Source: Nemertoderma westbladi
Taxonomy: Eukaryota > Animalia > Xenacoelomorpha
Reading direction: 5' to 3'
Length of the DNA: 64,000 nt
Assembly: GCA_032718475.1 (NCBI GenBank)
Contig: JAUCBJ010007937.1
Coordinates: forward strand, 1 to 64,000
A program made the position numbers and the translations under genes. The notes under the pieces were generated by a model. That model had not been told where the DNA came from. It did not search any database and was given only the letters and a program-made list of their open reading frames with translations. Shown piece by piece: positions 29,533 through 54,581 of the stretch; positions within the stretch are counted from its first letter, which is position 1; each line of letters starts with the position of its first letter.

Positions 29533-31441
29533 TATAGAATTATATTCCCTAAATGCCGTGGATTTTCAAAATTTTATTTTATTCGGATTAACTTTGTAAA
29601 GATTGCTTTGAGTTCTCACTCGTATTGGTTCTATCTATTATGCATCTATCGGTCAAGTGGTTCAGTAGCTCAGTTGGTAGAGCGTTGGAAATTATATGTG
29701 TAGTAGGTATCGAGTTCGAATCCTAGTAAGTGCGAATTATTTTTTGTGCAGAATTTCAACTCATTTAAATTAACCGCTACAAATTAATTGCATTTGTCTG
29801 TACCAATGAGGCTGTAGTTATTTGATTGTAACCAATGTCGTGCAAGTTATATATTAGCTGGACCAATAGCTATCTTTAAAACCCTGTTAGAACCTATAGA
29901 ACAATCGGGAATTTTCTCGATTGATTGCGGCACAAATTTGGTATAAAAAGGTGCGATTTGTTCATTAGTTGACAATTATATCTATCTAATTCAATCTCAA
30001 TTGCTGATCTACCTTAACTTTCTGTCTTATTTCAGATTACATTGTTTATTGTATAATAGTTATTATATCTTTTGTAATAAAAGTCAGAAATACTAGTCAC
30101 ATCTCAGCCCTTTTCTATCTGTTTTACTATGGTTTCACTACGGTGAACAAACTCAGGGACAGGATGGCCGGCTAGAGATCGGGCCGCAGCAATGAACGGG
30201 AACATCACGGGAATGTAGACGAGAGACAACCCGCAATACCATTTAGAGTTATTCGCCCATCGCCTGAAAGGTTAGACAGCGTTCGATCCTTGCTACCTAA
30301 GTGTAAGACCAAAAGATCAAAAGGTAGACGTAGTGACACGCTGTAAGCCCAAAATTACATCATAGGGACTGTACCGTCTTGATTCAGGAAAAACCCACAG
30401 TAGACCTTCATATTCCTACGGGGGAGGGAGAGAGAGCAGATACTAGTACGCAGATAGGACGTAGGCACACCGGTACAAGGCATACACATTGGTTAGGGTG
30501 CAGCAAACTGTACGCTTAACTCTTGCTAAGTACAGGTGTGTGTGCGACTATTTACAGTACGACAGTGTCCATTACATCAGAACTTGTAGGCTAAGGGGGT
30601 TGCTGTGTTTTCACCTGAATTGGGATTGTACCGTTCAGGCGGTAGGGCAGTTTACACTAGGCGCAAATAAATTGAGGCTATCAGGGATATACTAACATCT
30701 ACCGTGTCCCCGCCAACGCCCTAATAGGAAGTTACCCGGACTACCTGGGTGACTAAAATTCTAGATAGGAGCCAGGATAGCTATTAGTACCCGTACGCCT
30801 ACAGTAGTAAACTAACACATCTCTTCTTAGTATCAGGGACCTGGTACCTAAAATTGCCGAATTCTGGGCGTAGTATTAACCTTATGCCTGAATTTGAGTC
30901 CTGGAAATACGCAAGAGGGGAAGGAACCTTATCATTCGTGAGTATTGGACCTACAAGTTACAAATTTAGAATATTCGTAAATGCACACCGCACCCAGTAA
31001 TTATATATGTGAAGGAGCAAAACTGTTTTGACCGTTCAGAATTAACACACGCGCGTTAGAAATTATTTACACCTCGAAATATATAAAATTAACTTTTGTC
31101 CGTACTGTGCTTTGCCCGCTAGTTAGACATCTCCAAATATCTGCTCTGTACCTAGCTAGCGTCCCTTTGCCCAACCATATAAATCACACCGCGGCAAAGT
31201 ATACGAGCCTCTTAGTCCGTCAGTGAGTCAGCCTGATTTTAGGATTCGCTGCGCGGGATTTTGTTTCATCGAAGTTTGTCTGCTCGTAGACTGTTTTCTG
31301 CCTCACCGGTTATAAGAGATCGATACTGCAATATATTCGCTTACTTAGAGTTTACTGTTTTGGTGAGAAGGTCGGATTTATGATTTGATTCACAAACTTT
31401 ACAGTAGGATATTGCAGGTATTGTTGCTGTCTCTTCAATTA
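29533..31441 (+). repeat. 3' LTR of element B
   Basis: Follows the PPT; followed by TSD GCTTA. Confidence 0.95.
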
Positions 31442-31504
31442 GCTTAATATAGCATATAGTGACAGGACAATTGTCCCTAGACAATTATTATTGCCCTCAA
31501 GACT

Positions 31505-32555
31505 ATTTCCTCCCAATTACACTTATATTTCCACCAAAGACACTTATATTTCCCCCCAATGATACTTATATTTTCCCCCAATTACACTTATATTTCCCTC
31601 TAATTACACTTATATTTCCCCCCAATGACACTTATATTTCCCCCCAATGGCACTTATATTCCCCCCCAATGACACTTATATTTCCCCCCGCCCCAAAGAC
31701 ACTTATATTTTCCCCCAATGACACTTATATTTCCCCCCGCCCCAAAGACACCTATATTTCCCCCAATGACACTTATATTTCCCCCCAATTACACTTATAT
31801 TTCCCCCTAATTACACTTATATTTTGCCAATGATACTTATATTTCACCCAATGACACTTATATTTCCCCCAATGGCACTTATATTTCCCCTCAATGACAC
31901 TTATATTTCCCCCCGCCCCAAAGACACTTATATTTCCCCCAATGACACTTATATTTTCCCCCAATTACACTTATATTTCCCCCTAATTACACTTATATTT
32001 CCCCCCAATGACACTTATATTTCCCCCCAATGATACTTATATTTCCCCCAATGACACTTATATTTCCCCCCAATGACACTTATATCCCCCCCAATGACAC
32101 TTATATTTCCCCCCAATGACTCTTATATTTCCCCCAAATTACACTTATATTTCCCCACAATGACACTTATATTTCCACCCAATCACACTTATATTCCCCC
32201 CCACCCCAATGACACTTATATTTCCCCCCCCCCCCAATGACACTTATATTTCCCCTCAATTACACTTATTTTTTCCTCCAAATACACTTATATTTCCCCC
32301 TAATTACACTTATATTTCCCCCAATGACACTTATATTTCCCCCAATGACACTTATATTTCCCCCCCCCAATGACACTTATATTTCCCCCAATAACACTTA
32401 TATTTCCCCCCGCCCCAAAGATACTTATATTTCCCCCAATGACACTTATATTTCCCCCAATTACACTTATATTTCCCCCTAATTACACTTATATTTCCCC
32501 CCAATGACACTTATATTTCCCCCCAATGACACTTATATTTTCCCCCAATGACACG
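31505..32555. repeat. ~22-bp minisatellite (CCCCCAATGACACTTATATTT)n
   Basis: Degenerate tandem array. Confidence 0.92.
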
Positions 32556-32559
32556 CATA

Positions 32560-34600
32560 TTACGTGCGGCAACTCCTACGCATGTAGGAGTTGCGACCAC
32601 AAGCGGTTTACTCTCGCAACTGAAAGATATGAGTATGAGAACCCTCCAGGAGAAATGCCGGCTCGGTCGTCGCCCGGGTCAACAAGGACCGCGTCCCCCA
32701 GTGGTACACCAGGCTGGGGTCGATAAATTGGCTACTGGAACAGAAGACAGAGAAGAAAGAAGAACCAACCTGCTGAAATGTAAAAAGACACTAAGATTGC
32801 TACAATGAACGCACGCACGCTGAAAGCACAGAGCAAACAGGGTGACATGGTCGCTCTGGCAATGGAATATAACATCGACATCATCTGCATCCAAGAACGT
32901 CGGATTTGTCATGAAGACACTGCCATGAAGTACAATGACATTGGAAATGGATGGACTTTTGTAACAAGCTCAGCAGTAAGAAACTCGGCCAATGCATCAA
33001 TTGGAGGAGTTGGAATTCTGCTAAGTCAATTTGCACTTATGACCCTAAACAACATCGAATCTATAAATTCCAGGGTTATGATAGCAACATTTGAGGGTAA
33101 TCCCAAGACAACAGTAATATGTTGCTACAGTCCAACCAATGCCTCAGAGCCAGAACAAGCAGTCAAGTTTTATGAAGATCTGACTGGACTTATAAAGGAC
33201 ATTCCGAAACACAACGTTAAAGTCATTGCTGGTTACCTGAATGCTCAAATTGGCCCAGAAGACATCAAGGGTTACACACATAACACCAGTTCTAATAGAA
33301 ATGGGTACTTACTTTTAGACCTAATGGAAGAATGTGAATTGATACCAACAAACACCACATTCGAAAAGAGTAAGGGGAAGCTATGGACCTTTCAATACCC
33401 TAATGGAACCAAAGCACAACTGGATTACATCCTCATAAACAAAAAGTGGAGAAACAGCATGATCAACTGCGAGGCATACAGCTCGTTCAACCTAATTGGT
33501 TCGGACCACAGAATTGTGACTGCAGAGATCAGACTCAGTTTGAGAGCCAGCAAACCTAGGACAAGCAAGCAAATCAACTATGACTGGGAGAAACTCAGAA
33601 CTGACAATGCAGTAAAGGATGCTTACACAGTAGAAGATCAAAACCGCTTTGAAGCACTCCAGTCAATGGATGAAGACCAGTCCACCGATTCAATATACCA
33701 GAATATAATAAAAGCCCACAAGGAATCAGCTAAGAGGCATATCCCCCAGAAACCCAAACGAAAACAGTATGTGCCATGGCGAAACTCTGAGGTTACTTGT
33801 AAGAGAGAAGATCTTAAGATAGCCTACAAAGTAAAAACCGAACAACCAACAACCGAAAACATTAACAAGGTTGAGAAAGCTAAGGATGATCTTAAATTGG
33901 CCTACAACATCAGCCAGGAAAAGTACATACAGGATAAAACTGAAGCAATTACAACTGCTCACATACAGCAACAATCAAGACTTACCTGTAATACCAGAAG
34001 TAATCGTTGCTGGCATTGGATTGTTATATTGTGACACAGAAGCGCAGGTACTCTCACCAGATGGTGAAACTGAGTTTTTCTCAATCCTGGCTGGCGTACT
34101 GCAAGGTGACACATTTGCACCATTACTATTTGTAATTGTGCTGGATTACGCAATAAGGACGGCCACAAAGGGTGAAGATCTGGGACTCACACTTCAAGAA
34201 CGCAGAAGTAGTAGATATCCGGCAACTACAGTCACAGACACCGACTTTGCGGATGACATCGCCCTGCTCTCTAATACGCTAGCAGATGTACAGCTTCTAC
34301 TAAATAAAGTGGAGAGGGCTGATAATGAGGTTGGATTGCATATAAATGCTACCAAGACCGAATTCATGACCTTTAATGTTGATGGAAACTTGACAACCAT
34401 TGATAATAATCAACTAAGTAAGGTCGATGACTTCCAGTACCTTGGATCATGGATAGAGAGTAGCAAAAAGGACATAGAAGTTAGGAAAGCAAAGGCTTGG
34501 GTAGCTCTATCAAGAATGGATACCATGTGGAAATCAGATTTCCCCAGGCACCTGAAGACTAAGTTCTTTCGAGCCACAGTGGAAAGTGTATTTTTATTAA
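32560..34600 (+). pseudogene. RTE-type non-LTR retrotransposon, internally deleted and 3' truncated
   Basis: AP endonuclease (TMNARTL, ICIQE, LDYIL, SDHR), then an RT remnant (GVLQGDT, FADD, YLGS); the first RT subdomains are missing near 33985-34030. Confidence 0.88.
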
Positions 34601-34603
34601 GTG

Positions 34604-34757
34604 AATATTCCACATTTTTTCCATAATAATATTACACATTTTTTCCATAATAATATTCCACATTTTTTCCATAATAATATTACACATTTTTTCCATAATA
34701 ATATTACACTTTTTTTCCATAATAATATTACACATTTTTTCCATAATAATATTACAC
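34604..34757. repeat. 24-bp tandem repeat x~6
   Basis: (TACACATTTTTTCCATAATAATAT)n. Confidence 0.9.
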
Positions 34758-34900
34758 ATAATAATTGTTTGTGTTAATTTTGAGTGATTTTTCATGGTTG
34801 AAGAGTAAAATCCACAAATAGTTACTGCATTATATATAAAAAACGAAGAAAATAATTTAAATAGTAATAATAATCTTTCAACATTAATTTCTTAATAAAG

Positions 34901-35067
34901 GTAATTTCTGAAGGGGTTTGGGAACTGAATGTTTTTCAACTGGATGTTGGCGATGTACTAGATGTAACGCTGGTTTTACGTAGCGATAACGAAGTTGACA
35001 CTAGAGAATCGACCTTCACGCAAACAATACGAGTTGTTAATTCCCGTCCACCGGATCTAACCCTAAG
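34901..35067 (+). CDS. Host exon, REJ domain (VISEGVWELN...LDVTLVL...QTIRVVNSRPPDLTL)
   Basis: aataaag acceptor gives phase 0 (matches the exon ending at 12757); gtaaat donor in phase 2; QxIxV...PP REJ pattern. Acceptor choice is inferred from phase. Confidence 0.72.
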
Positions 35068-36477
35068 GTAAATGTTATTCTACCTAACTATAATGTAAAT
35101 TATATTCTACCTAACTATTATGTAAATGTTATTCTACCTAACTATAATGTAAATGTTATTCTACCTAACTATAATGTAAATGTTATTCTACCTAACTATA
35201 ATGTAAATGTTATTCTACCTAACTATTATGTAAATGTTATTCTACCTAACTATAATGTAAATGTTATTCTACCTAACTATTATGTAAATGTTATTCTACC
35301 TAACTATAATGTAAATGTTATTCTACCTAACTATAATGTAAATGTTATTCTACCTAACTATAATGTAAGTGTTATTCTACCTAACTATAATGTAAATGTT
35401 ATTCTACCTAACTATAATGTAAGTGTTATTCTACCTAACTATAATGTAAATGTTATTCTACCTAACTATAATGTAAATGTTATTCTACCTAACTATAATG
35501 TAAATGTTATTCTACCTAACTATAATGTAAGTGTTATTCTACCTAACTATAATGTAAATGTTATTCTACCTAACTATAATGTAAGTGTTATTCTACCTAA
35601 CTATAATGTAAATGTTATTCTACCTAGCTATAATGTAAATGTTATTCTACGTTACTATAATGTAAATTATATTCTACCTAACTATTATGTAAATGTTATT
35701 CTACCTAACTATAATGTAAATGTTATTCTACCTAACTATAATGTAAATGTTATTCTACCTAACTATAATGTAAATGTTATTCTACCTAACTATTATGTAA
35801 ATGTTATTCTACCTAACTATAATGTAAATGTTATTCTACCTAACTATAATGTAAATGTTATTCTACCTAACTATAATGTAAGTGTTATTCTACGTAACTA
35901 TAATGTAAATGTTATTCTACCTAACTATTATGTAAATGTTATTCTACCTAACTATAATGTAAATGTTATTCTACCTAACTATAATGTAAATGTTATTCTA
36001 CCTAACTATAATGTAAATGTTATTCTACCTAACTATAATGTAAATGTTATTCTACCTAACTATAATGTAAGTGTTATTCTACCTAACTATAATGTAAGTG
36101 TTATTCTACCTAACTATAATGTAAATGTTATTCTACCTAACTATAATGTAAGTGTTATTCTACGTAACTATAATGTAAATGTTATTCTACCTAACTATTA
36201 TGTAAATGTTATTCTACCTAACTATAATGTAAATGTTATTCTACCTAACTATAATGTAAATGTTATTCTACCTAACTATAATGTAAATGTTATTCTACCT
36301 AACTATAATGTAAATGTTATTCTACCTAACTATTATGTAAATGTTATTCTACCTAACTATAATGTAATTGTTATTCTACCTAACTATAATGTAAGTGTTA
36401 TTCTACCTAACTATAATGTAAATGAAATTCTGCCTAACTACCTAACTATAATGTAAATGTTATTCTACCTAACTATA
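35068..36477. repeat. 27-bp satellite, ~52 copies (GTAAATGTTATTCTACCTAACTATAAT)n
   Basis: Highly homogeneous tandem array starting at the exon donor site. Confidence 0.95.
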
Positions 36478-39924: not shown

Positions 39925-42474
39925 CTATCTGTTCCTCCGGGGGTAGTTCCCCCTGGCGTCCTCTTCCCTGGGTCGTTTCTTGGTTATCACCGTTCCTCTG
40001 GCATCATCCGCTTTCTGCTTTCGGACCTTCGCCGCCACTTCCTTGCTGATCCCGGTCGTTGGCTCCTTGGGCGCTGGTGTTATTAGTGCCCGATATCGCT
40101 TCGCCGGTGGCCCCTCAGAGTGGCCCGGTTGTCTCCCTCTAGTGGCGTCCCATAGGATCATTTTCATTGCCTTTGGTACGTGCTCCGCCAAGAAATCCCT
40201 AAACTCCCTTCGGTTCTCTGGCGTCCACCTGTCCAGATACCTTTGCGTGTTCATCACTCCAGCGTACGACGCCGCCGTTGCTACCTCTTGGTAGGTAAAC
40301 GGTAGCCTCCGCTTTATGATTTCCATGTGAGTCTCCTGATTGATAAGGAAGAAACCCCACTTGAACTCCTGGGCCTTCATGCGCTGGCGCGTCATGGCCC
40401 CGACGTCGGCCCACTCCTCGAATCTTGTGAACTTCTCCTCGTCGTTCATCCAGTCGCACTCGCGCCCGTAGTGTCCCCGAAAGTGGCACTTTGGACATCG
40501 GTTATGCAACCGTGGACACGCCCCCATCCTGTGACTTGGTTCTCTGCAGTAGAGACAAAAGGTTCCCTGTTGGAACCGGTATAGGCAGCTGCTTTCCCGA
40601 TGGGTCTGTCTCCCACAGTAGTCGCAGCCGAGTACCAATGTCTCCCGTCCCACCTCGTCTTTCGTCCCAAGCGATCTCCGCGGTCTGTGGAGTCGCTGGT
40701 AGGCGAACTTCTCTACGTTGGTCTCCCTGTCTACGTCGATCTCTCCGCCCCTCTCGGGCATCGTCTCCCCGAATACTATCCGTGGTGCCGTCCCCGGTTG
40801 CTCGCCCAACCTGATGGTGCTCCCCGCGAAATCCATCGCCGGCTCCTCGTGCACCCAGGTCCGCTTGCCGGATCTGTTCCAGAAGGCCCTCGCCCCACTG
40901 GCCGTCACCACCCTTCCGCCAACCCAGTCCGTGTCCGAGTGGCCTATCCTCTCGATGGGCGGCATCTCTCCGAACTCGTCGTCGTCGTCCTCCTCTTCTG
41001 GTAGTGTCTCCAATCCCGGTATCCCGATGGATCCACTATGTCCCTTCCCGCCTTGGCTCTCGCCCGTAGCTCTCCATCCCTCTAGCTCCCTTAACTTCCT
41101 TGGCGGTTGGTCGCCCTCGGCGCCCGCTGGTATGGGCATCGTTCGCAACCCCGACGTCGACTGTTTCGGCGATCCCACCGTCCATCCCAATTCTCGCCCC
41201 AGAGACTCCCCCGAACTCCCTGATGAAGTCCAATGAAGCTCGTCTAGGCCCGCCTGTTCCTCGAAGCCGTAACTCTGTGTCCTGGCCTCCTCTTCCCTCT
41301 CCTCTGCTTCTATCCTCTCCCGTCTAGCGACTTCTTCCAGTCGCTTTGCTTCTCGTCTATCCGTCTCTAGCTGCTCCCATCTCTGATACGGTGTATCTGT
41401 CTCCCCGTCTACCAGATGTCGGCTGTTGTAATACACCGACTCGCCCTTCAGCCCCGGGTGGTCTACCAGACCGTCAAAAGCCACTTTAAAGGCTCTCCTG
41501 TAGCTTAGGGGTGATCCCGATAACAGAAATGCCCCTGGTTCCCTCTCGATAATCACGGTCATGAATAAGTTAAGCAAACTTATCATCATCCAGTCCTCCT
41601 GCAGGATATATCGCTTCTGATATACCTTTATCGCTCCCCTGCGGAACTGATATACCTCCTGCTTTCCCGGTCTCGCTCCCCACTTTAGCGAGTTCGCTAG
41701 TTCTGCTCCGTATTCTTCCCTAAACTTCCCCCAGTCCATCGGTTTGTGGCACACGAGCCCCAATAATTGGCCCATCGCCACCGCCCCGCATTGGCCTGTG
41801 TTTTCGACTACCCCCAATCCATCCGGTGCCGTCATAGCCATAAAGACTTTCTGCATATCCAGGAGGTTGGTGGCGTCCGGACCGATGATCCTCTCCGCGT
41901 CCTCGCGAATCGCCGATCCCACTTTCGTCGTCGACTTCTCTCTTACTAAGACTTGTACCGCTTTCGGTAATCGGTCTAATTTCGGCCCGTCCTTCTTCCC
42001 ATACGTCCCTAGGTCGAATAAGAAGATGTCCCCATTTGGCGCGGCCAAATGTAGGAGTATGGTCCTGGCCGACCCTGCCATTCCTCGTCTCGAACCCGCT
42101 TCGTCTTCCACGGTTCCCTCGTCATCTAGGATCATATATCCTCCTCTGTTGACGGACTCTATGAATCTCTTCCAGTCCTTCCTCGGTGATTCCCTCAGGT
42201 ATTTCGGAATCCCGAACTTCGCCTCGTCCCCTTTCACCACGTAATGGAAGTGTTGGAAAATCGCGTTGTCTAGCGACGGCGTCCCGTAGGTCCTGACCAG
42301 CCGCTGTTCGTGCATCTCTCTGAAGTGATCCTGCAGCGCTCGCGCCGCGTGACCCCTTTCCAACCTCTCGTAGTATCCTCTCGTCTTCTCTTCCGGATGT
42401 CTCTCGGTGAAATCCACCAGTATTTCCTTTCCTCCTGACTCCGCCTTTCTCTTTCTGATCAACTTACTCGCCAT
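39925..42474 (-). CDS. Accessory ORF of element C: DEDD(y)-like 3'-5' exonuclease plus 3 CCHC zinc knuckles, 849 aa
   Basis: GYMILDDEG (ExoI), LLHLAAPNGDIFLF, LPKAV...EKSTTKVGSAIRED (ExoII), LLDM, QKRYILQED (ExoIII-like); CDYCGRQTHRESSC, CLYCREPSHRMGAC, CPKCHFRGHYGREC. Confidence 0.82.
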   Translation of the reverse strand: MASKLIRKRKAESGGKEILVDFTERHPEEKTRGYYERLERGHAARALQDHFREMHEQRLVRTYGTPSLDNAIFQHFHYVVKGDEAKFGIPKYLRESPRKDWKRFIESVNRGGYMILDDEGTVEDEAGSRRGMAGSARTILLHLAAPNGDIFLFDLGTYGKKDGPKLDRLPKAVQVLVREKSTTKVGSAIREDAERIIGPDATNLLDMQKVFMAMTAPDGLGVVENTGQCGAVAMGQLLGLVCHKPMDWGKFREEYGAELANSLKWGARPGKQEVYQFRRGAIKVYQKRYILQEDWMMISLLNLFMTVIIEREPGAFLLSGSPLSYRRAFKVAFDGLVDHPGLKGESVYYNSRHLVDGETDTPYQRWEQLETDRREAKRLEEVARRERIEAEEREEEARTQSYGFEEQAGLDELHWTSSGSSGESLGRELGWTVGSPKQSTSGLRTMPIPAGAEGDQPPRKLRELEGWRATGESQGGKGHSGSIGIPGLETLPEEEDDDDEFGEMPPIERIGHSDTDWVGGRVVTASGARAFWNRSGKRTWVHEEPAMDFAGSTIRLGEQPGTAPRIVFGETMPERGGEIDVDRETNVEKFAYQRLHRPRRSLGTKDEVGRETLVLGCDYCGRQTHRESSCLYRFQQGTFCLYCREPSHRMGACPRLHNRCPKCHFRGHYGRECDWMNDEEKFTRFEEWADVGAMTRQRMKAQEFKWGFFLINQETHMEIIKRRLPFTYQEVATAASYAGVMNTQRYLDRWTPENRREFRDFLAEHVPKAMKMILWDATRGRQPGHSEGPPAKRYRALITPAPKEPTTGISKEVAAKVRKQKADDARGTVITKKRPREEDARGNYPRRNR

Positions 42475-42908: not shown

Positions 42909-45900
42909 CTAAGGTGCCCCTTCCAATAGACAGTATTTACCTACAGCTCTCCTGTAAGTTTTTCTGTCCTTCGCACCTATCTTTCCACCTATCCGCACTT
43001 CTACCGATCGGACTCTTCCGTCCTCGTCGGAGTAGGTGCCTACAACTCTCGCCAACCGCCATTGGTTGTTGATGATAGTATCATCCGTGACGATTACGAG
43101 ATCTCCTGCTCTCAACTCCCTGTTTGACTTCCTCCACTTGCTTCGTTTATGGAGCGTGGGTAGGTATTCTTCGACCCACCTCCTCCAATACTCTGCGCTT
43201 ATTGCTTTAGCGACTTTCCAACTTTGGCGGGAGTGTATGTCGTCTGGGTCTACACCCCGCATATCGATGGTCGCTGGCCTCTCCATTAGGAAATGGCTAG
43301 GCGTTAGCACGTCTAGCGACTCAGGGTCATCATTCTCCGGATATAGCGGTCTGCTATTAATGATCCCCTCGCACTTCGCAAGTACTGTACGTAAGACGTC
43401 CTCGGTGACCATGTGGGTGTTCATTAGCTTCGTCATTAGACGCTTTGAACTGCCCACCAGTCTCTCGATGCATCCTAGTGTATGTGGTGCATACGGCGTC
43501 CTTCTCTCCCACTTTTCTTGTCGTCTCCTCATGGCTGCCTTGACTTCTTCTCCCTCCAAGGTGTCCAGGGCCTCTGCCATCTCACTCTCTGCGCCCACAA
43601 AGTTGGTGCCGTTGTCGCTGTATATCACTGCGATCGTCCCACCTTTGCGGTCCCTAAACCTTTCTAAGGCGTTAATGAACGCTGATGTGGTTGCATCTTG
43701 GGCGAGTTCTATCCCTACCGCCCGCGTATTGTTGCATACGAAGATAATGCCGTAGCGTTTCTCCATGTGTCGCATCACTTTGATCTTTATCGGCCCGAAC
43801 ATGTCCACACCGCAATGCGTAAATGGCGGGTCGTGCTGTCTTACCCTACTCGCCGGTAGTGGCGCCATCTCCTGTACGGCTCGCTCCTTCTTCGCTCGTC
43901 GGCAGGTCTGGCACTGCCCCACTACCGCTTTAACCTTCTTCCTTAATTGTTTGACCCAATAGGTCCTCCTTATCTCTGTGAGGGTTCGGTTGGTGCCCCC
44001 GTGCAATATCGATTTGTGGGAGTCCCATATAATCTGGTGGACTATTGGCGATCCTGTAGGAATGATGATGGGTTTCGGTGGTACGACTATGCTGTTGTTG
44101 TATCCCACCCTAGAATTCATTACTAGAATCCCGTCGTCATTGAGTTGTGGCGACAGCGTAATCAGCTCGCTGTCCCGTCGGAGGTGCTGTTGGTTACCGA
44201 CGCGTTCCACCTCGTCACCGTAGTTCTTCCGTTGTTCATAGCGGATCACTGCCTTGGCCGCTCCTTCCAGATCTATGGTTGTCCTGATCTTCTTGCCCTT
44301 GCCGACTCCCGCAAGGAAATTCCCGAAGGCTCTCCAGTACGCCACTAGTTTCTTGGTCTTATACCAACTAGAACTGTAGCTGAGGAGTTTATCCGTTGGG
44401 TTATCGCACAGTTCCCTTCCTGGTTGCACGTCCCTAATCTCCCTCACCATCTGGGAGTATATCTCTTCTCCATCTGAATCTCCCTCTTCTCCTTCTGATA
44501 CTACTTCCGAGCCCGGGTCCACCTTCCTCATCGGCGGCCAGGCCTCCCTATCGCTCAGAAATTGTGGCCCATGTTGCCACAATACTTCCTTCTTCAGGAA
44601 AGTGTGGCGTTCCACGCCCCTCGACAGCAAGTCCGCTGGGTTCTCGTCTGTTGGGCAGTAGTGCCACCTTTCCAGTTCTGTGCTCGCCCTTATTTCGTCC
44701 ACTCTATTCGCGACGAATATCGGGTATCTCGTCCTTTCGTTGTATAGCCAACCAAGCACTACCATGGAGTCCGTCCAGTAGTGTGTCTCCACTATGTTGG
44801 GAATAGTATCCACTAGGTAGGCTGTGGCTCTTACTCCTAGTCTCGCAGCTGTCAATTCTAACTTGGGAACTGATGCTGAATCTGGCGGCGTTGACTTTGC
44901 TTTGCTAAAGGCTAGCCTTGGCTTATGAGCCCCCTCTCGTTCTACTAAGTAGAGTGCCGCTCCGTACGCTTCCAACGACGCGTCGGAGAACATGTGTAGG
45001 TCCAGATTCGTCATGTTCCCATCCGGGAAATACACCCTTGGCATGTTGTATGTTCCCATCTTCTCCAAGTTTCCTGTCCACTTGCTCCACTGTTTCTTGA
45101 TTTCCTCTGGTACCTCTACGTCCCACTCATCTTTCAATTTGTATACTCTCTTGAGTATCTGTTTCCCCGTGACTAATAATGGGGATGCTAGGCCTAGGGG
45201 ATCGTATATCCTTGCTATATACGATACATAGCCCCTCTTCGTGTGGATGTCTGCGCCCTCCTGGCTCAGCTGATACTTCAGTTCGTCTGTCTCTCTATCC
45301 CACACGATTCCCAATGCCTTCTGCTGGGATTCCGTTCTCTTAATCGCCATGTCCTGCCCTTTGGCTGTTGTGGGATTATCCATGGTCGATTCTGGTTTCC
45401 TGTCCTCTATGGCTTTGATAAATTCTTCCGAACTGGATTGGAATTTGGTCAGGTTAAAGCCGGATCCTTTTAGGATGTCGCGAACCTCGCGCCCTGTATC
45501 CAGTATCTCCTTAACCGTATTTCCAGACTCCATTCCGTCGTCTACGTAGAAGCCGCGTCGAATCATATCGACGGCCCTACTGCTGTATCTATCTTCCTTC
45601 CCCTTTACTGTGTCTCTCACTGCCATAGTCGTCATAAATGAAGACGACTTGGCCCCCATGTTCTGTACTATCATCTTATATGCTGGTATTATCGGCGGTT
45701 CTTCTTCGCCGTTATACCATAAGAAGCGTTGACTGTCGCTATCTTCTTCCGTTACACGGACTTGGTTGAACATGCCTTCTATGTCACACGTGAAGGCGTG
45801 TTTCCCATTTCGAAATCTAAGTAACACCTCTATGCCCGAATTGTAAATGTTTGGGCCTTCTAACAGGTAGTCGTTTAAGCACTTTCCATCGGTCTTTGCC

Positions 45901-47876
45901 GATGCGTCGACTACCATCCTTAGTTTACCTTTCTTTGGATCTAAAGCCACGTGCAGTGGCAGGTAATATGTTCTATCCGTGTTCGGCTCGTCGACCGGTA
46001 ACTCCACGGCCCATCCTTTCTCGACGTACTTCTTAATTGTTCTGTGGATGTACTCATTCTTCTCGGGGCTCCGTTTTAGTGTTTGTTTCAGTTTGCGGAG
46101 TCTCGTGAGTACCATCCCCCTATTGTCGGGCAGCGTTATCTTCGGTAGTTTCCATACCATTCCTATAGTATACCATCCCTCATCGCACGTCATTGATTCC
46201 TCCACGCTTTGTAGTGCCTGTTTGTCTTCTACCGAGGTCCCGACCCCGGTTTCTTTCAGTCCCTCGAAATCTTGTCTGAGCAGTCTTTTGAGCTGCTCCT
46301 CTGCTCCCTCATCACCCATTTCCTGCATTGTCCCCGCGAACATGCATCCTGATGTCTCCGACATCCTAAATGGTATCTTGCTCTTGATTGGACCACTCAG
46401 CGTCCACCCGAATGGTGTTAATATGGCCACCGGGTCACTCTGCTTGTCTTCACCGAAGACCGTTTGCATTCTTTCGTGGGCCGTTGGGCAGTCCATACCT
46501 ACTATGATGGATACCTTCCTAACGTCCACGTCTGGGATTGAGAAGTCAATGTTGTCCAGGAATTTATACTGCTCGACCTCGATGTTGGTTGGCCGCCTGG
46601 CATTGATATTAATTGACTCTATCACTTGAATGGGGTCGATGGTTGCCCCATAGTCGCATCCCGGTGCCACTGCTGCAATTGCGCACCGTCCTGTTCTCAT
46701 CTCCAGGATCTCATCTTTACTAGAGATGGTTGTTACCGCCATTCTGCTTGGCCTCGTTCTCAATCCTATCTCCTCGGCCACCCATTCCTCGACTAATGTG
46801 AAGGCAGCTCCACTATCAACCAGCATTAGTGTTGTTACTGATCGATTGCCTTCCCCGATCACTCGTACTGGTACTACTCCAAGTAGCACCGTTCCTCTTT
46901 TCTTCGCCCCTACTGTGCTCGTCGCCATCGTTTGGCCTCTCCTTTGGCCAAATTTCATTGGCCTCTCCTTGCACTCCCTTGCTCTATGTCCACTCATTAC
47001 ACATCGCGAGCAGATTTTATTGCTGAACGCATAATCTATCTGATCTTGCCTAGGTAGCGCCTGCCAGTACCTGCAGTTCATAGTTTGATGAGGCGCATTT
47101 GCGTGTAGCTGGCATTTGCTCTTTGGGTCGTAGCCCTCTTTATACAGTGCATTGCGTATCGCAGTTGCGTTCGTACCAAAGTCCCTACTATTCTTATTGT
47201 TTGGGTTTTGCCTATTGGACGTACTGGGGTTATGTTTATTCGTGTTATTATTGTTTCCCTGTCCGTTCCATGATGTTGTCTTATCCTCGGCTAGCTGTGG
47301 ACTTGCAGTCCCCTGCGTCGCTGCATATGGCAATGATTGCCTGAGTCTCGGTAATGCGTTCGATGTGTTGTGCTCTGGTTTCGGTCTATGGTAGTCTGTC
47401 TTCGGTCCCTTTCCCAGGCTGTCTTCGCTATAGACTGGGTCAGTTATTAGTTCAGCCTCGTAGTTTAAGAAGTTTGACATTTCTTCTAAACCCGGTTCCG
47501 CACCCTTCTTATCTCGAGTGGAGAAGGCAATTTTCCTCCATTTGTTGCGCAGCCAGTTTGGTAGTGCCTGCGCTATCTTGGTGATGTTGTTGGACGCATT
47601 GAGCTCGTACGGCGCGTCTAGCGTCTTCAGCACGATTAGCGCCTTTTCGACTTTGTTAGCGAACGTCTTAATGCTAACGGGATTATCCTGTAGGCCACCC
47701 GATGTTATGCCTCTCAGCGTCTGCCTGATGATCTTGGCCGGGTGCCCGTATTCCCTATCCAGTGCCCGCCATGCTGTCGTGAAGCCGCCCTCTATTCCTT
47801 GATATTGCCTCACGATGTCGTATGCTGGGCCTCCCGTGTACACTTGTAGATACTTTAGGCACTCCGCCTGCGTCAA
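42909..47876 (-). CDS. BEL/Pao Gag core-PR-RT-RH-IN of element C (distal part of the polyprotein)
   Basis: CSRCVMSGHRAREC, LVDSGA, YVDD, FSDAS, SDNGTNF. Confidence 0.93.
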   Translation of the reverse strand: MTQAECLKYLQVYTGGPAYDIVRQYQGIEGGFTTAWRALDREYGHPAKIIRQTLRGITSGGLQDNPVSIKTFANKVEKALIVLKTLDAPYELNASNNITKIAQALPNWLRNKWRKIAFSTRDKKGAEPGLEEMSNFLNYEAELITDPVYSEDSLGKGPKTDYHRPKPEHNTSNALPRLRQSLPYAATQGTASPQLAEDKTTSWNGQGNNNNTNKHNPSTSNRQNPNNKNSRDFGTNATAIRNALYKEGYDPKSKCQLHANAPHQTMNCRYWQALPRQDQIDYAFSNKICSRCVMSGHRARECKERPMKFGQRRGQTMATSTVGAKKRGTVLLGVVPVRVIGEGNRSVTTLMLVDSGAAFTLVEEWVAEEIGLRTRPSRMAVTTISSKDEILEMRTGRCAIAAVAPGCDYGATIDPIQVIESININARRPTNIEVEQYKFLDNIDFSIPDVDVRKVSIIVGMDCPTAHERMQTVFGEDKQSDPVAILTPFGWTLSGPIKSKIPFRMSETSGCMFAGTMQEMGDEGAEEQLKRLLRQDFEGLKETGVGTSVEDKQALQSVEESMTCDEGWYTIGMVWKLPKITLPDNRGMVLTRLRKLKQTLKRSPEKNEYIHRTIKKYVEKGWAVELPVDEPNTDRTYYLPLHVALDPKKGKLRMVVDASAKTDGKCLNDYLLEGPNIYNSGIEVLLRFRNGKHAFTCDIEGMFNQVRVTEEDSDSQRFLWYNGEEEPPIIPAYKMIVQNMGAKSSSFMTTMAVRDTVKGKEDRYSSRAVDMIRRGFYVDDGMESGNTVKEILDTGREVRDILKGSGFNLTKFQSSSEEFIKAIEDRKPESTMDNPTTAKGQDMAIKRTESQQKALGIVWDRETDELKYQLSQEGADIHTKRGYVSYIARIYDPLGLASPLLVTGKQILKRVYKLKDEWDVEVPEEIKKQWSKWTGNLEKMGTYNMPRVYFPDGNMTNLDLHMFSDASLEAYGAALYLVEREGAHKPRLAFSKAKSTPPDSASVPKLELTAARLGVRATAYLVDTIPNIVETHYWTDSMVVLGWLYNERTRYPIFVANRVDEIRASTELERWHYCPTDENPADLLSRGVERHTFLKKEVLWQHGPQFLSDREAWPPMRKVDPGSEVVSEGEEGDSDGEEIYSQMVREIRDVQPGRELCDNPTDKLLSYSSSWYKTKKLVAYWRAFGNFLAGVGKGKKIRTTIDLEGAAKAVIRYEQRKNYGDEVERVGNQQHLRRDSELITLSPQLNDDGILVMNSRVGYNNSIVVPPKPIIIPTGSPIVHQIIWDSHKSILHGGTNRTLTEIRRTYWVKQLRKKVKAVVGQCQTCRRAKKERAVQEMAPLPASRVRQHDPPFTHCGVDMFGPIKIKVMRHMEKRYGIIFVCNNTRAVGIELAQDATTSAFINALERFRDRKGGTIAVIYSDNGTNFVGAESEMAEALDTLEGEEVKAAMRRRQEKWERRTPYAPHTLGCIERLVGSSKRLMTKLMNTHMVTEDVLRTVLAKCEGIINSRPLYPENDDPESLDVLTPSHFLMERPATIDMRGVDPDDIHSRQSWKVAKAISAEYWRRWVEEYLPTLHKRSKWRKSNRELRAGDLVIVTDDTIINNQWRLARVVGTYSDEDGRVRSVEVRIGGKIGAKDRKTYRRAVGKYCLLEGAP

Positions 47877-50800
47877 GTTTTTGTTAGTATTTCGTTACTA
47901 TACATGCGCCGAAACTGTAGATATTCTTCCGGCCTGCTCCCATCGAATTTGAATGGTTCCACGGGTGGTAACTCGATCCTCGTTTTCAACGCATCGATCA
48001 ACGTGGCCATCCCCATCGCCTGCGCTTCCAATGGATTCGATGGGTTCTGCATAGTTTCTCCTGTCTGGTGCGTTCCGTCTGTCCTATTTCTTGACTTTCT
48101 CTGGCTTGGGTATGTCATCGGGGGTAGCGGCCCCCTCCATATGTCTGTATCACACGATCTATTCTCATCCAAGGGTCTCGTTGTTCTTGCCCCTATCGGG
48201 GTATATTGTTGATATTGTGATGGGGGAATGTCACCCTGTCCCCCCCCCACCGGTATGTTTGGTACTGGGGTTGATGTTAATATGTTGGGGCCCATGCACC
48301 TATCCGCAATAATTCCCCCCTCCCCTGGGTATATGTTATGTCCCTGCATGCTGTAGTCATACTGCTGTGCTGGTACCGGTATAGGCCTATCAGCTTCTGG
48401 CCTACTCGCCGGTATGTATTCCGCGACTTCCGGGTTTAATCCCGTTGTCCACGCCATCCTATCGCCTACATTGCCTCTCTCAGTATGGCCTATGGTATGT
48501 GCAGTAAGGCCTACAGTATGTCCTACAGTCTGCATGTGTCGCTCGGGATCGAAGTTTATTCTTCTCGAATAATCCTCCCCGCGGCTACCGTATTCTCGAT
48601 CGATAGGTGTATTCCGTCGGAAAGTTTCTCTTCGACCCCCCTCTCTACTGTCCTCATCTTCGTACCGGTACATCGCGTACCCCTCTCTCGGCGCGTAGTG
48701 CGCCTCGCCGGGTCGCATCTCTCCGGGGCGACGGCAATCTCCCGGAGTCCGACCCCACTGACTCTCCGTTCTCATCTCAACTACCGACGGCTCGCTATCC
48801 ATCCTCGCTCTTCTATCGTTCGCGGCGATACCTCTACTACTCTTCTCTTCTTCTCCTTTCAGTGGAGTATTCCCGCTCGTGAGATCTCTCGTCGACCTCC
48901 CGGTTAAACCCCACTGTTCTTCTTCCCTCTTCTGATCGGGCTCGACGCTTCGTCCGCCCTCTTACGACGTCAACCTGTCTCTCTCTGCTCGGTCGCACGC
49001 CGCTGGGGATACTCGCAACCCCCCTATTACTTTCCGTCGCCGGTTGTTGCGGTTCACCTATTTCGGCCCGCGCACCATCCGCTGACGGCTGTGGGACACT
49101 CTCTGCCCCCCCCCCCCCCTTTCGCCGCTAACTCGCTGTTGTGGGGTTCTCGTAGCCCCCCCCCCCCCCCCCACTCGCCACATCTAACTTCGCTACTCCT
49201 CACCCCGCTACTATATCCCTCTCCAGTCGACACATCAAGCCTACCGCGGTCGGGTCTATTCACCCCCGCCTCTCCCTCTGCTATTGCGTGGCCTACCAGG
49301 CCCTCTACTCCCTGCCTACCAACTATGTGGCCTACCAGGCCCTCGCTGGGTCTACCTAACCCAGCCACTCCCTGCCTACCAACTACGTGGCCTACCAGGC
49401 CCTCGCTGGGTCTACCTAACCCAGCTATTCCCTGCCTACCAACTACGTGGCCTACCAGGCCCTCGCTGGGTCTACCTAACCCAGCTATTCCCTGCCTACC
49501 AACTACGTGGCCTACCAGGTCCTCGTCTGTCTGGCCACACACGCCCGACGTGTTTATATTAATAGCACCCGTATTGGAAACGGAATTAATTTGTTCGTTC
49601 GAAATAAAATCATTTGAATTATCTTGCGCGACTACACCATCTGAATTATTTTGTAAATTCGGGCTCGCTGAATTATTTAAGTTATTTAGATTATTTTGTG
49701 TTATTGCATTACTTAAATTATTTTCTAAGTTCGGATTTGGGTTATTACTTTGATTAATTGGATTATTTTGCGTAGCTACATTAATATTAGAATTATTTTC
49801 TACATTAATATTAGGAATGTTCTGATTTAAATTTAAATTACTACCACTAGGTAAAGTATTTCCTGCAATAAAGGTTTGATTAGAATTGTCCCATACGGTA
49901 CTATTAATATTAACCACGTCTACTGTACCATTATCATTATTACCCCCCCCCCCCCCCCCCGCCCGTACGGTCACACCAGTTTTGAGTCTGTCGTGCGGTC
50001 CCTGTAAGTGGGGTATTAATAAATGTATCCACGGCCCCCGGCTCCTCAAAAATACTCGAGCCAGCCTCGCTCTCAGACTCCCCCATTTGCGCCAGTTCCA
50101 CCTCACGCGCGTGTATAGCTTCATACTCTACGAGTTTGTCTCGCTGTTTCTCCAATTCTCTTCGCTCACGCTCCGCTTTTGCTATTTTATCCATAGCCTC
50201 CCTCTCGGTCTGCTTGGCCAATTCCATCTCTCTCCTAATCCCCTCCCTTCGCCTCGCCTCACGCGCTCTACGTTCACTCTCCTCCCTCACTTCACGCTCT
50301 CTGCGTTCACTTTTCTCCTTCGCTTCACGCTTCTCGCGTTCGCTTTTCTCTCTCGCCACACGCTCTTCTTGTTCCTTCAACTCTATTTCATCATACTCCC
50401 TGAGGCTCCTCACGGCCCTTTCGGCCCTCTCTCTTACCTCTCCAATCGACGCCATTTCCCTCTCCAGCAGCACTCTCCCTTCCTCTAGCCGTCTACCTAC
50501 TTCTCTATTACCTTGCACTGCTAGATTGAGACAGTACCTAGCGTCTATCTCTCTCACCCGTCTTTCTTTTGCGGAGGATGTAGCAGACTTATCGTTTGTG
50601 GAGGATTCCCTCCGCCTTCCCGATCTACTAGCTTTCCCCCTCCTCCCGGAACTCCCTCCGACCGACGAGACCGAATCCGCGGGGTCAGCCTCGGATTCGC
50701 CCTCCTCAGGTCTGTTCCAACCCACTAATTTTACTCCCCGGGCATCGACCAAGTATGGCCCTATGTACACTGACGCTACGCTAGGTTCCATACTCCCACA

Positions 50801-51466
50801 TTCCCATAGTTCAAATAGTTCGCTGGCAACCCCTTTTGCTCTCTCCTCGGCTAGTTCTCTCTGCCCAAAACGCATTAGGTAATTAAAGTGTCTATCCGAA
50901 TCACCTAGTCGTTTCCTCAGTCTCACCTCGTCTATCGTTTTCCCTTTTCTGGCCTCCTCTAGTAGTCTCCGGGTCGCGTTGTAGGCCCGTCGAAGTTGCT
51001 CAGAAACCCCGACGTCCTCGTCGCCGACCTCTCGTCCGTCTCTCCGGGTTCGACGTCGTACCGGCGGCCCCACCGTCGCCGTTTCGGCGGGCCGCTCGTC
51101 GCCCTCGGCCTGTGGCTGGCCGGCGGCATCGGTACCGATATCTCGTTCGCCTCTCTGCGTCCGGGGCCGCACCGTCGGCCCCACCTTCGCCGTTTCGGCG
51201 GGCCGCTCGTCGCCCTCGGCCTGTGGCTGGCCGGCGACACCGGTGCGTCGACCCCCGTCCCGTGTCGACTCGTCTCCGTCTCCCTCCGTCCCGCTCTCTC
51301 TTTCTCTCGGTTCGAGCTCGGGTTCCAGGCCCCCCTCGTCCTGAACTGCCGGATGACCCGTTACCGATGGGTCCGGCGTTGTGGGCCTGTATCGCCTGGT
51401 TGCGGCCTCGCGGATCGTTAGGTCTTCGTCTGGGGTCCGCGTCGGTGTCTCGCCCGATTGACTCAT
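47873..51466 (-). CDS. N-terminal Gag region of element C, split into several frames at homopolymer runs
   Basis: ATG at 51466 just after the 5' LTR; charged coiled coil, Asn-rich block, 60-bp repeats, then IELPPVEPFKFDG gag motif. Frame breaks coincide with long C runs (~49950, 49105-49172) and an A run (47880). Confidence 0.7.
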
Positions 51467-51526
51467 CTCGCTGGTGATTGGTGGCTGATGGTTTGGCTAG
51501 CTAGGGCAGCGGTTGGTTTTAGTTAC

Positions 51527-52056
51527 TGTGACGGGATCCAGGAGGGATCCCGATTTATCCGGTATTTAGTTCACGCGTCCCCGCCGTGTATAAAGAGTGA
51601 ATGAAAGTGAAATGAGTTCTGAAGTTCGGTGTATAATAATAGAGGTATAAGATATAGATATATTGTATAGTATATGGAAGGCGGGATACGGTAACTAAAA
51701 GTCCCGTGCTCCCCTATCTAAACTAATTAACCTATGCTAGCACTACTGCACTGAGATAACTGAATTACTGATATTGGGTTATTGGTTATATTGCACGGTT
51801 GGCCTGATTACTACCTAATCGATGCCTTGCCCCCCTCTGATTGGTTGATACCCTTGTTGGCGCCCTTTGGAGTGTTCCCGTTCACTCCACCTATTCTCTC
51901 TGGGTTAGGGGTTTGGCCCCTGACCCTCTATTGTGTGCTTCCTTCCCATTCTTATTGGGATGGCACGAGTTGGTTAATTATCCAATCTCGTGGCTCCCAA
52001 TATTGCTTATCGGCTTATAACTTTATGGGGTGTTAGCGGGATTGAATAAGCTAACA
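51527..52056 (-). repeat. 5' LTR of element C
   Basis: Direct repeat of 38681-39210. Confidence 0.95.
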
Positions 52057-52150: not shown

Positions 52151-54581
52151 TGATGATGATGATCGGCTTGCACTAGGGTGCAGTGCCGGCGGCCCCAGAA
52201 ACATAGCGCCCCCAGATCTTGCGGTCAGCCATACAATTTCCTAATTCATTCCTGTTCTCAAGTCCTGTGTCCTTGAGCAGGCGTTTGAGGAAAGTCATTG
52301 GCTGTCCACCACGTCTATTCTCGCCAGCAGGCTGCCACAGCACAAGGTTGTGTACAGGTTGATCCTGCCGGCGGAAACAGTGCCCAGCAAGCATTAGACG
52401 GCGTTTCTGCAGGGTGATGCTAGGTCTTGGCAATGAGATGTTACCATATTTATATAACACCTCATTGCTTATGTGTGCATCATATGCTATGTTGTGCACC
52501 CGGCGAAGCATCCTGGTGTATGTGCCATCCAAGGACCTGGTGTCTTCAGCAGTTAGAGCCCAGCATGGGCTGCCATAGAGCAGCACAGGCTCCACTGCTG
52601 CACGGAAAAGGCGTACCTTTAAAGAGCATGAGATGTCAGAGCTCTTCCAGATCCTGGATAGCTTGTGGATGGCGGACCAGGCTTTCCCTTTGCGAATTCG
52701 GAGATCTTCAGCAGACCTCCGAACCCATGATCCAAGGTAGCAGAAGTCGTTCACATGACTTACCAGTCCATCCAGCGATTGAATGTTATCCCGATCAATT
52801 TTCTGCTGATCTGAATCCATGTTTACTGTCAGAATTTTGGTCTTTGTGCTATTCACAAAGAGGCCAACACTAGATGCAGCCTCCTCTAAGCTAGATAGCA
52901 GCTTCTGTGCTCCTTCTAATGTCTCTGACAGTAAACCAAGGTCATCTGCAAAGTCAAGGTCGGTTAGATGTTCTGCTGGGGAACCACGTCTACGGCTACC
53001 TGATGGTGGAGATATTTCCACCCCATCAGCTTCATGAAGATCGAGTGATGTCCGCAGCACATAGTCCACCACAATAATGAAGAGGAACGGGGCTAATGTG
53101 TCTCCTTGAAGGACACCCCAGAGAACCTCAAATGGGTCTGTGTCTCCATCAGTAGTGGATACAAAGGTCGTGGAACCGTCATATACTGATCTGATTGCAT
53201 TAATGATCTCATTGGGGATCCCATATGCCTGAAGAATTTGGAACATGCGTGGGCGTGACACGGAATCGAAGGCCTTGAAGAAATCCACAAATATGACAGC
53301 CAAATGTCTGTCTTTCTTTGTAGAAACCTCTTCAATAATCCTTCTAAGTGCCAGAATGGGTTCAAAGGTACCTCTACCTTTTCGAAACCCATTTTGATTC
53401 CCACGCAAGAGTCTTTCTACAGGATCCCTAATGCGATTCAGCATTATTCTGTTGAATAATTTAGCTGCAATTGAGATTAGACTAATTCCACGATATGAAC
53501 CAAAATAGGAGAGGTTGCCCTTCTTTGGAACGGGTGTTAGCCGATTAGTCTTCAGTTCTTGTGGTGCAATCTTAGTGCGGTACATTTCTGCTAGGATAGG
53601 GTGGGCTAGTTGAAGGCATTCTCTGATCTTAAAGACCTCGGGAGGCACATCATCAACACCAGATGCCCTATTGGTTTTAATGTCATTCGAAGCAGTTAAG
53701 ACCTCTTCGAATGTTATGTCACCAATTGGGATGTCTGAGAGTATTGTGTGTGACACAGGCTTTACAGTGAAATCGTCAGTCAGTTCTCGATCATTATTTA
53801 GCAATTTCTCGAAATGAGACTTCCAGCCTGCCAAGCGGTCGGCTGGAGAATCAGCCTTCACCTTGGCAGTTGGTCGGCTTTTTCTTCCAGAGAGCAGGTT
53901 GATTGCTTGCCAGGCTTCAGCAGATTTCCTGCTTTCGTCAGCAGCATTGATAGTATCAACCTGCTCGCTGATAAGCTTTGCTTTATTAATCGAGTATTGC
54001 TTGTTTAGAGATTTCACTGAAGCTTTCACTGCATTTTTTGCAGAAGTTGTACGTCGGCTACGATACTCTCTTTGGGCTTTGTTCAATGCCTCTCGCAGGT
54101 CTAGAATGCGCTGGTCTGCCCAGGGGATCTTCTTCAACTTCCGTGGCTTTAGAGGAACAGTTTTCTTTGCAGCTGACTTTACTGCTGCAGCAAACTGGGT
54201 ATATTTCTCACAGTGGTTCATTTCTTCATTTATGAGACTGGAATATCTATTTGTAACCTCAATTGTAAAGTTATCCTTTATAATGGGGTTTTTATCCAAG
54301 GTAGACCAGTCATGATGTGGGGTGGACTTTTTAAGACCCTTGTTTGCACGAAGGCTTAATTTGGTCTTTCCCATAACCAATCGATGGTCAGTCTGAAATG
54401 TCCGCACTGTGAGAGAAGAGCAGTCAATTATTGATCCTCTGTATTTCTTACGGAAGATGAGGTGGTCTATCTGGGACTTATGACCACTGGGTCCCACATG
54501 GGTGTACAGCTTTCCAGGTCGTTTTTGGAAATTTGTATTGGCCGAAAACAGCTCATTTGCCAGAATTTCTCATTTCCCAGA
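52151..54581 (-). mobile_element. 5'-truncated RTE-type LINE, copy 1 (ORF 52173-54497)
   Basis: End of AP endonuclease (IDHLI, TDHR), RT (QNGFR, GVLQGDT, FADD), (CAT)n tail. Confidence 0.9.

Follow-up and report, generated by a model that had tools for sequence, protein, structure and literature searches.

What is a nuclease-like protein doing at the env position of retrotransposons that have long terminal repeats (LTRs)? This question is raised by a 64,000-nucleotide stretch of the genome of the xenacoelomorph Nemertoderma westbladi (positions 1 to 64,000, forward strand, of contig JAUCBJ010007937.1 in assembly GCA_032718475.1; hereafter the window), which harbors three elements of the BEL/Pao family, termed A, B and C. 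In both B and C, an intact third open reading frame (ORF3) is placed after Pol and a spacer of 430-660 nt, at the env position, and the two encoded proteins are homologous outside their zinc knuckles. The features concerned are listed below in the coordinates of the window.

39925 to 42474, minus strand: ORF3 of C, 849 amino acids from ATG to stop, with an N-terminal part, a DEDDy-type nuclease domain, an acidic linker, three CCHC knuckles, a short conserved segment and a basic tail
25072 to 28797, plus strand: ORF3 of B, 1241 amino acids, with nuclease, acidic linker, three knuckles, short conserved segment and basic tail in the same order
41524 to 42186, minus strand: nuclease domain of C (codon starts: ExoI D 42126 and E 42120; ExoII D 41901; ExoIII Y 41610 and E 41598)
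26425 to 27150, plus strand: nuclease domain of B (codon starts: ExoI D 26482 and E 26488; ExoII D 26752; ExoIII Y 27067 and E 27079)
40456 to 40626, minus strand: three CCHC zinc knuckles of the C ORF3
27667 to 27846, plus strand: three CCHC zinc knuckles of the B ORF3

An earlier note on this DNA, made from the letters alone, had quoted colinear motifs from the two proteins, and all 12 of them were recovered, once each and in the same order (residues 115, 144, 186, 292, 688 and 710 of C and 473, 493, 559, 673, 951 and 976 of B, counted in stop-to-stop frames), together with the three CCHC knuckles that it had ascribed to each ORF. BLASTP of the C against the B ORF3 returned two colinear segments, of which the first comprises the knuckles and the stretch after them (E 5e-8), while the second is a knuckle-free domain with 24% identity over 248 columns (E 3e-6). 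The score of 77 between the two exonuclease domains was reached by 0/1000 shuffles (maximum 59), and the reversed sequence gave 31; similarly, none of 500 shuffles reached the score of the whole knuckle-free N-terminal parts and none of 1000 that of the knuckle regions. Pairwise similarity outside the knuckles, by which the proposed kinship was to be checked, is therefore significant. The FEEWAD/FDEWED segment is present and colinear as described, but taken alone it is weak (15/1000 shuffles, with a higher reversed control), and the parts upstream of the nuclease domain displayed no detectable relationship between the two ORF3s (176/1000 shuffles). At the DNA level, similarity between the ORF3s is not visible (best match E 0.34), as the note had stated, and C does differ from B in the length and sequence of its LTRs (530 versus 1909 bp, unmatched to each other in BLASTN), in GC content (0.566 versus 0.451 in ORF3, and 0.674 versus 0.403 at third codon positions) and in Pol (34% and 30% identity across the two main blocks).

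Judged from its predicted properties, ORF3 is not a membrane glycoprotein or otherwise env-like: the highest 19-residue hydropathy in the two proteins is 1.38 and 1.32, no transmembrane-grade segment was found by hydropathy, and no fusogen family was matched in Pfam. The same Pfam searches returned only a weak knuckle match for the ORF3s. A recent origin of the ORF3 knuckles as a copy of the Gag knuckles was considered and ruled out, as the ORF3-ORF3 score is 75 versus 34-54 to the Gag boxes, and a three-CCHC content was observed in 0/120 of the listed Pol relatives.

Several lines of evidence, each of modest weight, converge on the WRN/EXD2/RNase D type of DEDDy 3'-5' exonuclease, and the fold of both domains is very probably DEDDy. 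When each domain was queried alone in the ESM atlas, 24/30 neighbours were PF01612 clusters with scores of 0.90-0.95, the rest including unnamed eukaryotic clusters, and the first match for B and that for C have the same length and cluster size. The references used for further comparison were 15 bacterial WRN-like and RNase D-like enzymes, none from animals, to which the B and C domains show 12-20% identity; profiles built from them place the C and B ORF3s first and second among 78 frames of the window. In hhalign, C was aligned to the references over 130 columns with an E-value of 0.0014, exceeding 60/60 shuffles, and the B domain matched the DnaQ model PRK06309 at E 0.03. In the joint alignment of the 15 references with B and C, the ExoI D and E, the ExoII D, the W preceding ExoIII and the ExoIII Y are invariant in 17/17 rows, while the ExoIII acidic column holds D in 15/15 references against E in each of the two elements, so that both domains read D-E-D-Y-E. 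The register of ExoIII in C is fixed because its downstream W matches the W of 7/8 WRN-like rows, and the replacement of the usual D by E (YxxxE), which the earlier note had remarked in both elements, is thereby confirmed. Among cellular PF01612 DEDDy proteins (WRN exo, EXD2, RNase D, Nibbler/mut-7 and Egalitarian), the ExoI D-x-E, the LQLA-like and YLFD-like strands, the KVG..D ExoII, the W and the Tyr are shared in register, in contrast with the E for D in ExoIII and the insertions that follow the third strand and precede ExoIII, which set B and C apart.

A number of results weigh against this assignment. Shuffled proteins reach the 0.90-0.95 range of the ESM atlas 4-10 times per 100; the reference-profile hidden Markov models gave E-values of 0.08 and 0.51, which are not significant alone; B scored 19.3 against the reference profile in hhalign, under the best shuffle at 20.6; and the hhalign probabilities are low (1.5-18%). 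The Pfam scan called no nuclease family for either ORF3 (below the Pfam cut-off), PHROGs yielded no nuclease family and only one weak B match of unknown function, and PDB sequence searches gave no nuclease match for ORF3. Prediction of the C domain by AlphaFold from the single sequence resulted in a mean confidence (pLDDT) of 42.5 and no structural match in Foldseek. Supplying the reference exonucleases as the alignment raised the pLDDT to 72, with matches to EXD2, Egalitarian, RICE1, RNase D, Nibbler and Exd1; a model guided in this way is circular and indicates no more than compatibility.

Relatives of ORF3 were not found beyond the window. Homolog searches at the default length range retained 0/6552 candidates for C residues 60-400 and 0/3191 for B residues 400-1080; metagenome contigs, viral contigs and phage records held no ORF3 relative; and the profile of the B and C nucleases detected no fused nuclease in the 120 listed Pol relatives (best E 0.3). 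The sole phmmer match among 1.84 billion representatives was a tandem-repeat protein in which 19 residues were matched 14 times, and it was discarded as an artefact.

Does the domain still cleave? ORF3 probably encodes an active 3'-5' nuclease that uses Glu as its last metal ligand, and the same Asp-to-Glu change in the Klenow exonuclease (D501E) reportedly keeps much activity. The alternative is a catalytically dead domain that, together with the knuckles, would serve as an RNA adaptor by which the element RNA is moved or protected, in the manner of Egalitarian, EXD1 or Maelstrom. Inactive RNA-binding DEDD derivatives are described in the available part of Rodriguez et al. (PMC5408684). Both B and C depart from D at ExoIII, the reference Ala/Ser/Val positions after the ExoIII acid also differ in both, and Egalitarian is among the fold matches of the circular model. 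Dead enzymes, however, usually lose the catalytic acidic sites and the Tyr, and here the four acidic sites and the Tyr are all kept in proteins only about 24% identical, which counts against an adaptor and leaves it improbable.

Whether the gene is maintained by selection was judged from public DNA runs, in which many diverged copies of the B and C families are present, with ORF3 covered throughout, to about 81% identity. The variant sites examined were the best-supported ones, 40 among 1607 for the C ORF3 plus Pol and 40 among 59 for the B domain, each scored one change at a time, with one Pol change counted as a stop. Silent differences account for 13/16 of the listed sites in the C ORF3, 19/24 in the C Pol and 28/40 in the B nuclease, the shares in the nuclease gene lying near that of Pol, against an expected silent share of 21-32% (binomial p at most 6.5e-5; rough ratio of nonsynonymous to synonymous rates, dN/dS, 0.07-0.19). 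The two listed changes that fall in catalytic codons of B are both silent, the B domain has no listed indel, and the listed indels of the C stretch (12 listed of 56) all lie outside ORF3; several contigs have internal deletions crossing the C ORF3. The preponderance of silent differences among the listed copies bears out the view that the module is under purifying selection, with two reservations: the variant lists hold the best-supported sites only, and ten listed C nuclease sites cluster, linked, in residues 256-282.

The elements in which this gene resides were delimited as follows.

51527 to 52056, minus strand: 5' LTR of C, 530 bp, TG..CA, target duplication ATTAA
38681 to 39210, minus strand: 3' LTR of C, 3 mismatches to the 5' LTR, with a G-rich polypurine tract just before it
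47873 to 51496, minus strand: N-terminal region of the C Gag, in three separate stop-free frames in the present copy
42909 to 47894, minus strand: C-terminal part of the C Gag and Pol (DUF1759, protease, reverse transcriptase, Pao RNase H PF05380, integrase, DUF5641)
12832 to 14740, plus strand: 5' LTR of B, 1909 bp, TA..TA ends, target duplication GCTTA
29533 to 31441, plus strand: 3' LTR of B, 1 mismatch to the 5' LTR
15533 to 24415, plus strand: Gag-Pol of B, a single stop-free frame of 2960 amino acids
2683 to 7915, plus strand: element A, a 5'-truncated BEL/Pao with the gag end and pol in three frames

Element C spans 52056-38681 on the minus strand (about 13.4 kb) and element B 12832-31441 on the plus strand (about 18.6 kb), and both are young, multi-copy BEL/Pao LTR retrotransposons whose LTR pairs are bounded by 5-bp target duplications. 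The Gag-Pol of C is spread over four frames in the present copy, with the junctions of its N-terminal Gag frames at about 49.9-50.1 kb, 49.0 kb and 47.9 kb. In terms of classification, B and C are members of BEL/Pao (Belpaoviridae) by their LTRs, the order protease, reverse transcriptase (RT), RNase H and integrase, the Pao RNase H and the capsid domain. Pao RNase H PF05380 and DUF5641 were found by Pfam in A, B and C alike; the PF05380 E-values are 4e-40 in C and 9e-42 in B, in which DUF1759 and DUF5641 were also matched. All 120 listed RT-RNase H matches carry PF05380 at 29-38% identity, and the named Pol relatives within this range are those of molluscs, echinoderms, cnidarians, fish, flatworms and arthropods. 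A triple Gag Cys-His box with a CCHH end is described as a BEL/Pao trait in the available text of PMC554778; it is present in B and A, and C has only one canonical knuckle.

Some further properties of B were observed. Its LTR ends read TA..TA and not TG..CA (12832-14740 and 29533-31441), and the 5-bp target duplication is clean. A tRNA-like stretch with D-arm-like and T-arm-like motifs lies in both LTRs (about 12950-13030 and 29650-29730, plus strand), for which neither ARAGORN nor Rfam made a call. Moreover, a 16-nt motif, GGAAGACTYGYGAGCC, occurs in 11 copies on the sense strand of B between 15636 and 29231 (plus strand), six of them in Gag-Pol (in two different frames), one in the spacer between Pol and ORF3, one in ORF3 and three in the 3' untranslated part, with zero copies outside B or on the opposite strand against a chance expectation of about 6e-5; it is possibly a packaging or protein-binding signal.

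How old, then, is the association of this gene with its carriers? The RT-RNase H tree comprised 122 rows, namely the three elements of the window plus 119 out of the 120 listed matches (P0101 was dropped for coverage). Under LG+G4, A and B were united with an SH-aLRT support of 96 and A, B and C with 97; under a mixture model the support for A+B was 98 (36 rows, quick tree) and 97 (20 rows), while C formed a long branch whose position is not settled. A is thus the Pol sister of B, and an exclusive B+C clade was rejected by the approximately unbiased test (p 0.028; 20 of 122 rows). In the 4.9 kb downstream of the A Pol, no nuclease or knuckle motif was detected in any frame of the present copy. 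A 132-residue ORF following A (9542-9940) was tried as an ORF3 remnant and ruled out, its scores being reached by 454/500 and 297/500 shuffles.

Since the present copy of A, the sister of B, lacks the ORF and B+C is rejected, two histories come into question: an ancestral ORF3 that A lost, or two acquisitions long ago. The former is the reading we consider fairly likely: the age of ORF3 would be about that of the Pol split, and the gene would derive from the common ancestor, with loss in A or in the present copy of A. In the alternative, for which the chances appear clearly lower, B and C acquired the gene separately, long ago, from a shared pool of exonuclease-knuckle ORFs among retroelements, and no single lineage is marked by it. 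Besides the absence from the present copy of A and the rejection of B+C alone, such a history would accord with the unrelated N-terminal parts of the two ORF3s, with the A+B+C grouping, supported at 97 under LG+G4 and not resolved under the mixture model, and with the rotifer DEDDy ORF3, which was gained at least 2 times from a shared pool according to the available part of PMC5408684. Against it stand the identical position and domain order of ORF3 in B and C, the non-tRNA priming signal common to both (see below), and the 5' truncation of A, which may be a deleted copy. The distances also bear on this point: the path from B to C under LG+G4 is 3.06 for the nuclease and 2.22 for RT-RNase H, as co-descent predicts, and a recent swap of the nuclease between B and C is argued against because the nuclease distance exceeds that of Pol. 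In a tree with the 15 bacterial references, and these only, the B and C nucleases are sisters (100/99) on long branches, which bears in part on the concern of the earlier note that they might group with different host families. Of its overall reading, the homology, the exonuclease identity, the E for D, the old age of the module and the selection hold, whereas the description as lineage-defining is supported only in part, A being the sister of B without the ORF in its present copy.

Several observations were made around A. Past the 132-residue ORF, at about 10005-10020 (plus strand), a purine tract like that of B (GGAGCGG) is followed by TG, perhaps the start of the 3' LTR of A. At 1478-2682 (plus strand), a second C-family 3' untranslated region and LTR, 93% identical to C, adjoins the truncated gag of A, and the bases after this LTR begin GTAA, as does the leader of C itself; it may reflect an insertion into A or a template switch. 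Two inverted copies of an unclassified repeat (79%) flank A at 246-940 and 10511-11207.

What might an element-borne exonuclease act upon? According to the ICTV, the international body for virus taxonomy, BEL/Pao elements have a tRNA-Arg or tRNA-Gly primer site of 18 nt following the 5' LTR (PMC8742986), which is typical of the family and is not its classifying trait. In the leaders of B and C no TGG site for a tRNA primer was found, and the leader of C begins GTAA and that of B GTAG; the following candidate signals were located instead.

51517 to 51526, minus strand: candidate primer-binding site of C, the first 10 nt past the 5' LTR
51691 to 51700, minus strand: candidate self-primer of C in the LTR (LTR positions 357-366), a perfect 10-nt complement of the C candidate primer-binding site
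14741 to 14751, plus strand: candidate primer-binding site of B, the first 11 nt past the 5' LTR
13708 to 13718, plus strand: candidate self-primer of B in the LTR (LTR positions 877-887), an 11-nt complement of the B candidate primer-binding site with one G-U pair

Both LTR-leader matches lie at offset 0, flush with the LTR end, and both candidate primers end in TAC. The match length was reached by 4/1751 control positions for C and 4/2105 for B. This complementarity resembles the arrangement of Tf1/Tj1-type self-priming, in which the primer site complements a stretch of about 11 nt inside the 5' LTR and not a tRNA (PMC4600332, available part), although it could be a U5-leader stem instead. 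Self-priming of the Tf1 type is described there from fungi to vertebrates; in B and C it is predicted from the sequence alone.

With regard to function, we propose as a whole, tentatively and at somewhat under even confidence, that ORF3 is an exonuclease with knuckles that likely binds the element RNA and trims 3' ends, possibly to finish a self-made primer. Like env genes, ORF3 would be expressed from a message that is either spliced or internal, and its knuckles and basic tail would bind the RNA of the element itself. Brought to this RNA by the knuckles, the nuclease might then trim a free 3' end back to duplex, which is the least supported step, and the LTR stretch pairing flush with the 5' LTR end would supply such a duplex and a correctly placed 3'-OH. 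The RT of Tf1 reportedly trims its own primer. As an observation in its own right, the leader-initial GT at 51526 (minus strand) and at 14741 (plus strand) is a possible splice donor for the ORF3 message, and candidate acceptors end at 42496 (minus strand) and 25041 (plus strand), the latter accompanied by a branch-like CTAAC site and by a short upstream ATG.

A bolder version, which we regard as distinctly unlikely, holds that an undescribed BEL/Pao lineage restricted to its host swapped tRNA priming for self-priming and that an ancient Glu-variant DEDDy exonuclease with three knuckles trims its own RNA to the primer duplex; if true, this LTR retrotransposon would have an enzyme of its own devoted to primer processing. 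The priming part of the proposal has evidence against it. With strict pairing only, the match of C is reached by 2/1751 controls, and that of B shrinks to 8 nt and is ordinary (73/2105). Tf1-type elements self-prime, and for Tj1 the available part of PMC4600332 describes no exonuclease ORF.

An active nuclease may instead be directed against the host defence, as a counter-silencing factor that would degrade or mis-trim the small RNAs of silencing or double-stranded RNA. By analogy this is conceivable, if rather unlikely: the protein family includes enzymes of small-RNA pathways, Nibbler and Exd1 are among the matches of the circular model, and the B and C families are abundant in the DNA runs. 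A silencing-related role was raised by Rodriguez et al. (PMC5408684), and the exonuclease of arenaviruses suppresses innate sensing (PMC3429428, PMC7968707), as given in the available parts of these sources. Counter-silencing leaves unexplained why B and C have such unusual priming signals in common, though these may be unrelated. Very unlikely is a third function, proofreading for the RT, which would permit unusually long genomes. The elements measure 13.4 and 18.6 kb versus 4.2-10 kb for the family (PMC8742986), B has its weak DnaQ match, and the nidovirus ExoN offers a precedent (PMC7968707, available part); the nuclease, however, is a separate ORF with no fusion to Pol, its atlas neighbours are stand-alone PF01612 proteins, and the knuckles attached to it are of the RNA type.

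The remainder of the window holds other repeats. Tandem non-LTR (RTE/L2-like) RT segments, 99.7% identical, occupy 52151-54756 and 56950-59554 (minus strand) and are separated by an ORF with Ser/Thr/Gly repeats (54741-56756). Minisatellites of 22, 24 and 27 bp lie at 31504-32561, 34604-34759 and 35057-36477, around a broken non-LTR element at 32784-34626.

DEDDy ORF3s with a DEED motif, gained more than once, are present in the bdelloid rotifer Juno and Vesta LTR retrotransposons and in Athena/Terminon elements (Rodriguez et al. 2017, PMC5408684), and are restated in two reviews (PMC6431247, PMC5718144). As far as the available parts of these sources describe them, they are similar to the B and C ORF3s in being RNase D-like, in forming a separate ORF3 after pol, and in having no transmembrane segment and an altered acidic motif; by the same descriptions, B and C are set apart from the DEED proteins of Juno, Vesta and Penelope-like hosts by the D-E-D-E motif, the BEL/Pao backbone, the fusion to three CCHC knuckles and the length of 849-1241 residues. 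The rotifer env-like and GDSL ORFs show neutral variation (PMC5408684, available part), in contrast with the mostly silent listed differences of the B and C ORF3s.

BEL/Pao elements with env-like third genes include Drosophila roo, nematode Cer13 and Atlas, Ascaris Tas and a mosquito element with a gB-like gene (PMC8742986, PMC9094657, PMC13524379, in their available parts). B and C share with them the Gag-Pol domain order, the Pao RNase H and extra coding sequence at the env position, and differ from typical BEL/Pao elements (4.2-10 kb, with a tRNA site) in their 13-19 kb length, their lack of a tRNA primer site and an ORF3 that is predicted not to be a membrane glycoprotein. Some Caenorhabditis elegans Cer (BEL/Pao) elements reportedly contain a 3'-5' exonuclease-like region and Cys-His motifs, in papers of about 1999-2001; if this is right, they would be the nearest precedent and the novelty would be less. 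The literature search, with subscription papers and Repbase entries outside its scope, returned no report of an exonuclease ORF or of self-priming for BEL/Pao; the word "nuclease" is absent from the BEL/Pao survey PMC3118150, and the available parts of PMC9094657, PMC554778, PMC13524379, PMC11662393, PMC3985635 and PMC3601003 contain env-type extras or nothing relevant.

The ORF3 of B and C is accordingly a BEL/Pao version of a known theme, the DEDDy third gene, here fused to knuckles, bearing the Glu variant and set in a possibly self-priming context. The reason for which retrotransposons bear third genes other than env is an open question, and the rotifer DEDDy ORFs are without shown activity or function. 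Two very distant versions of one third gene, in young and abundant families, look selected, and the predicted self-primer duplex provides a concrete candidate substrate that makes the question testable. Two details would be new if confirmed, namely self-priming among BEL/Pao elements and a DEDDy active site in which Glu naturally replaces Asp.

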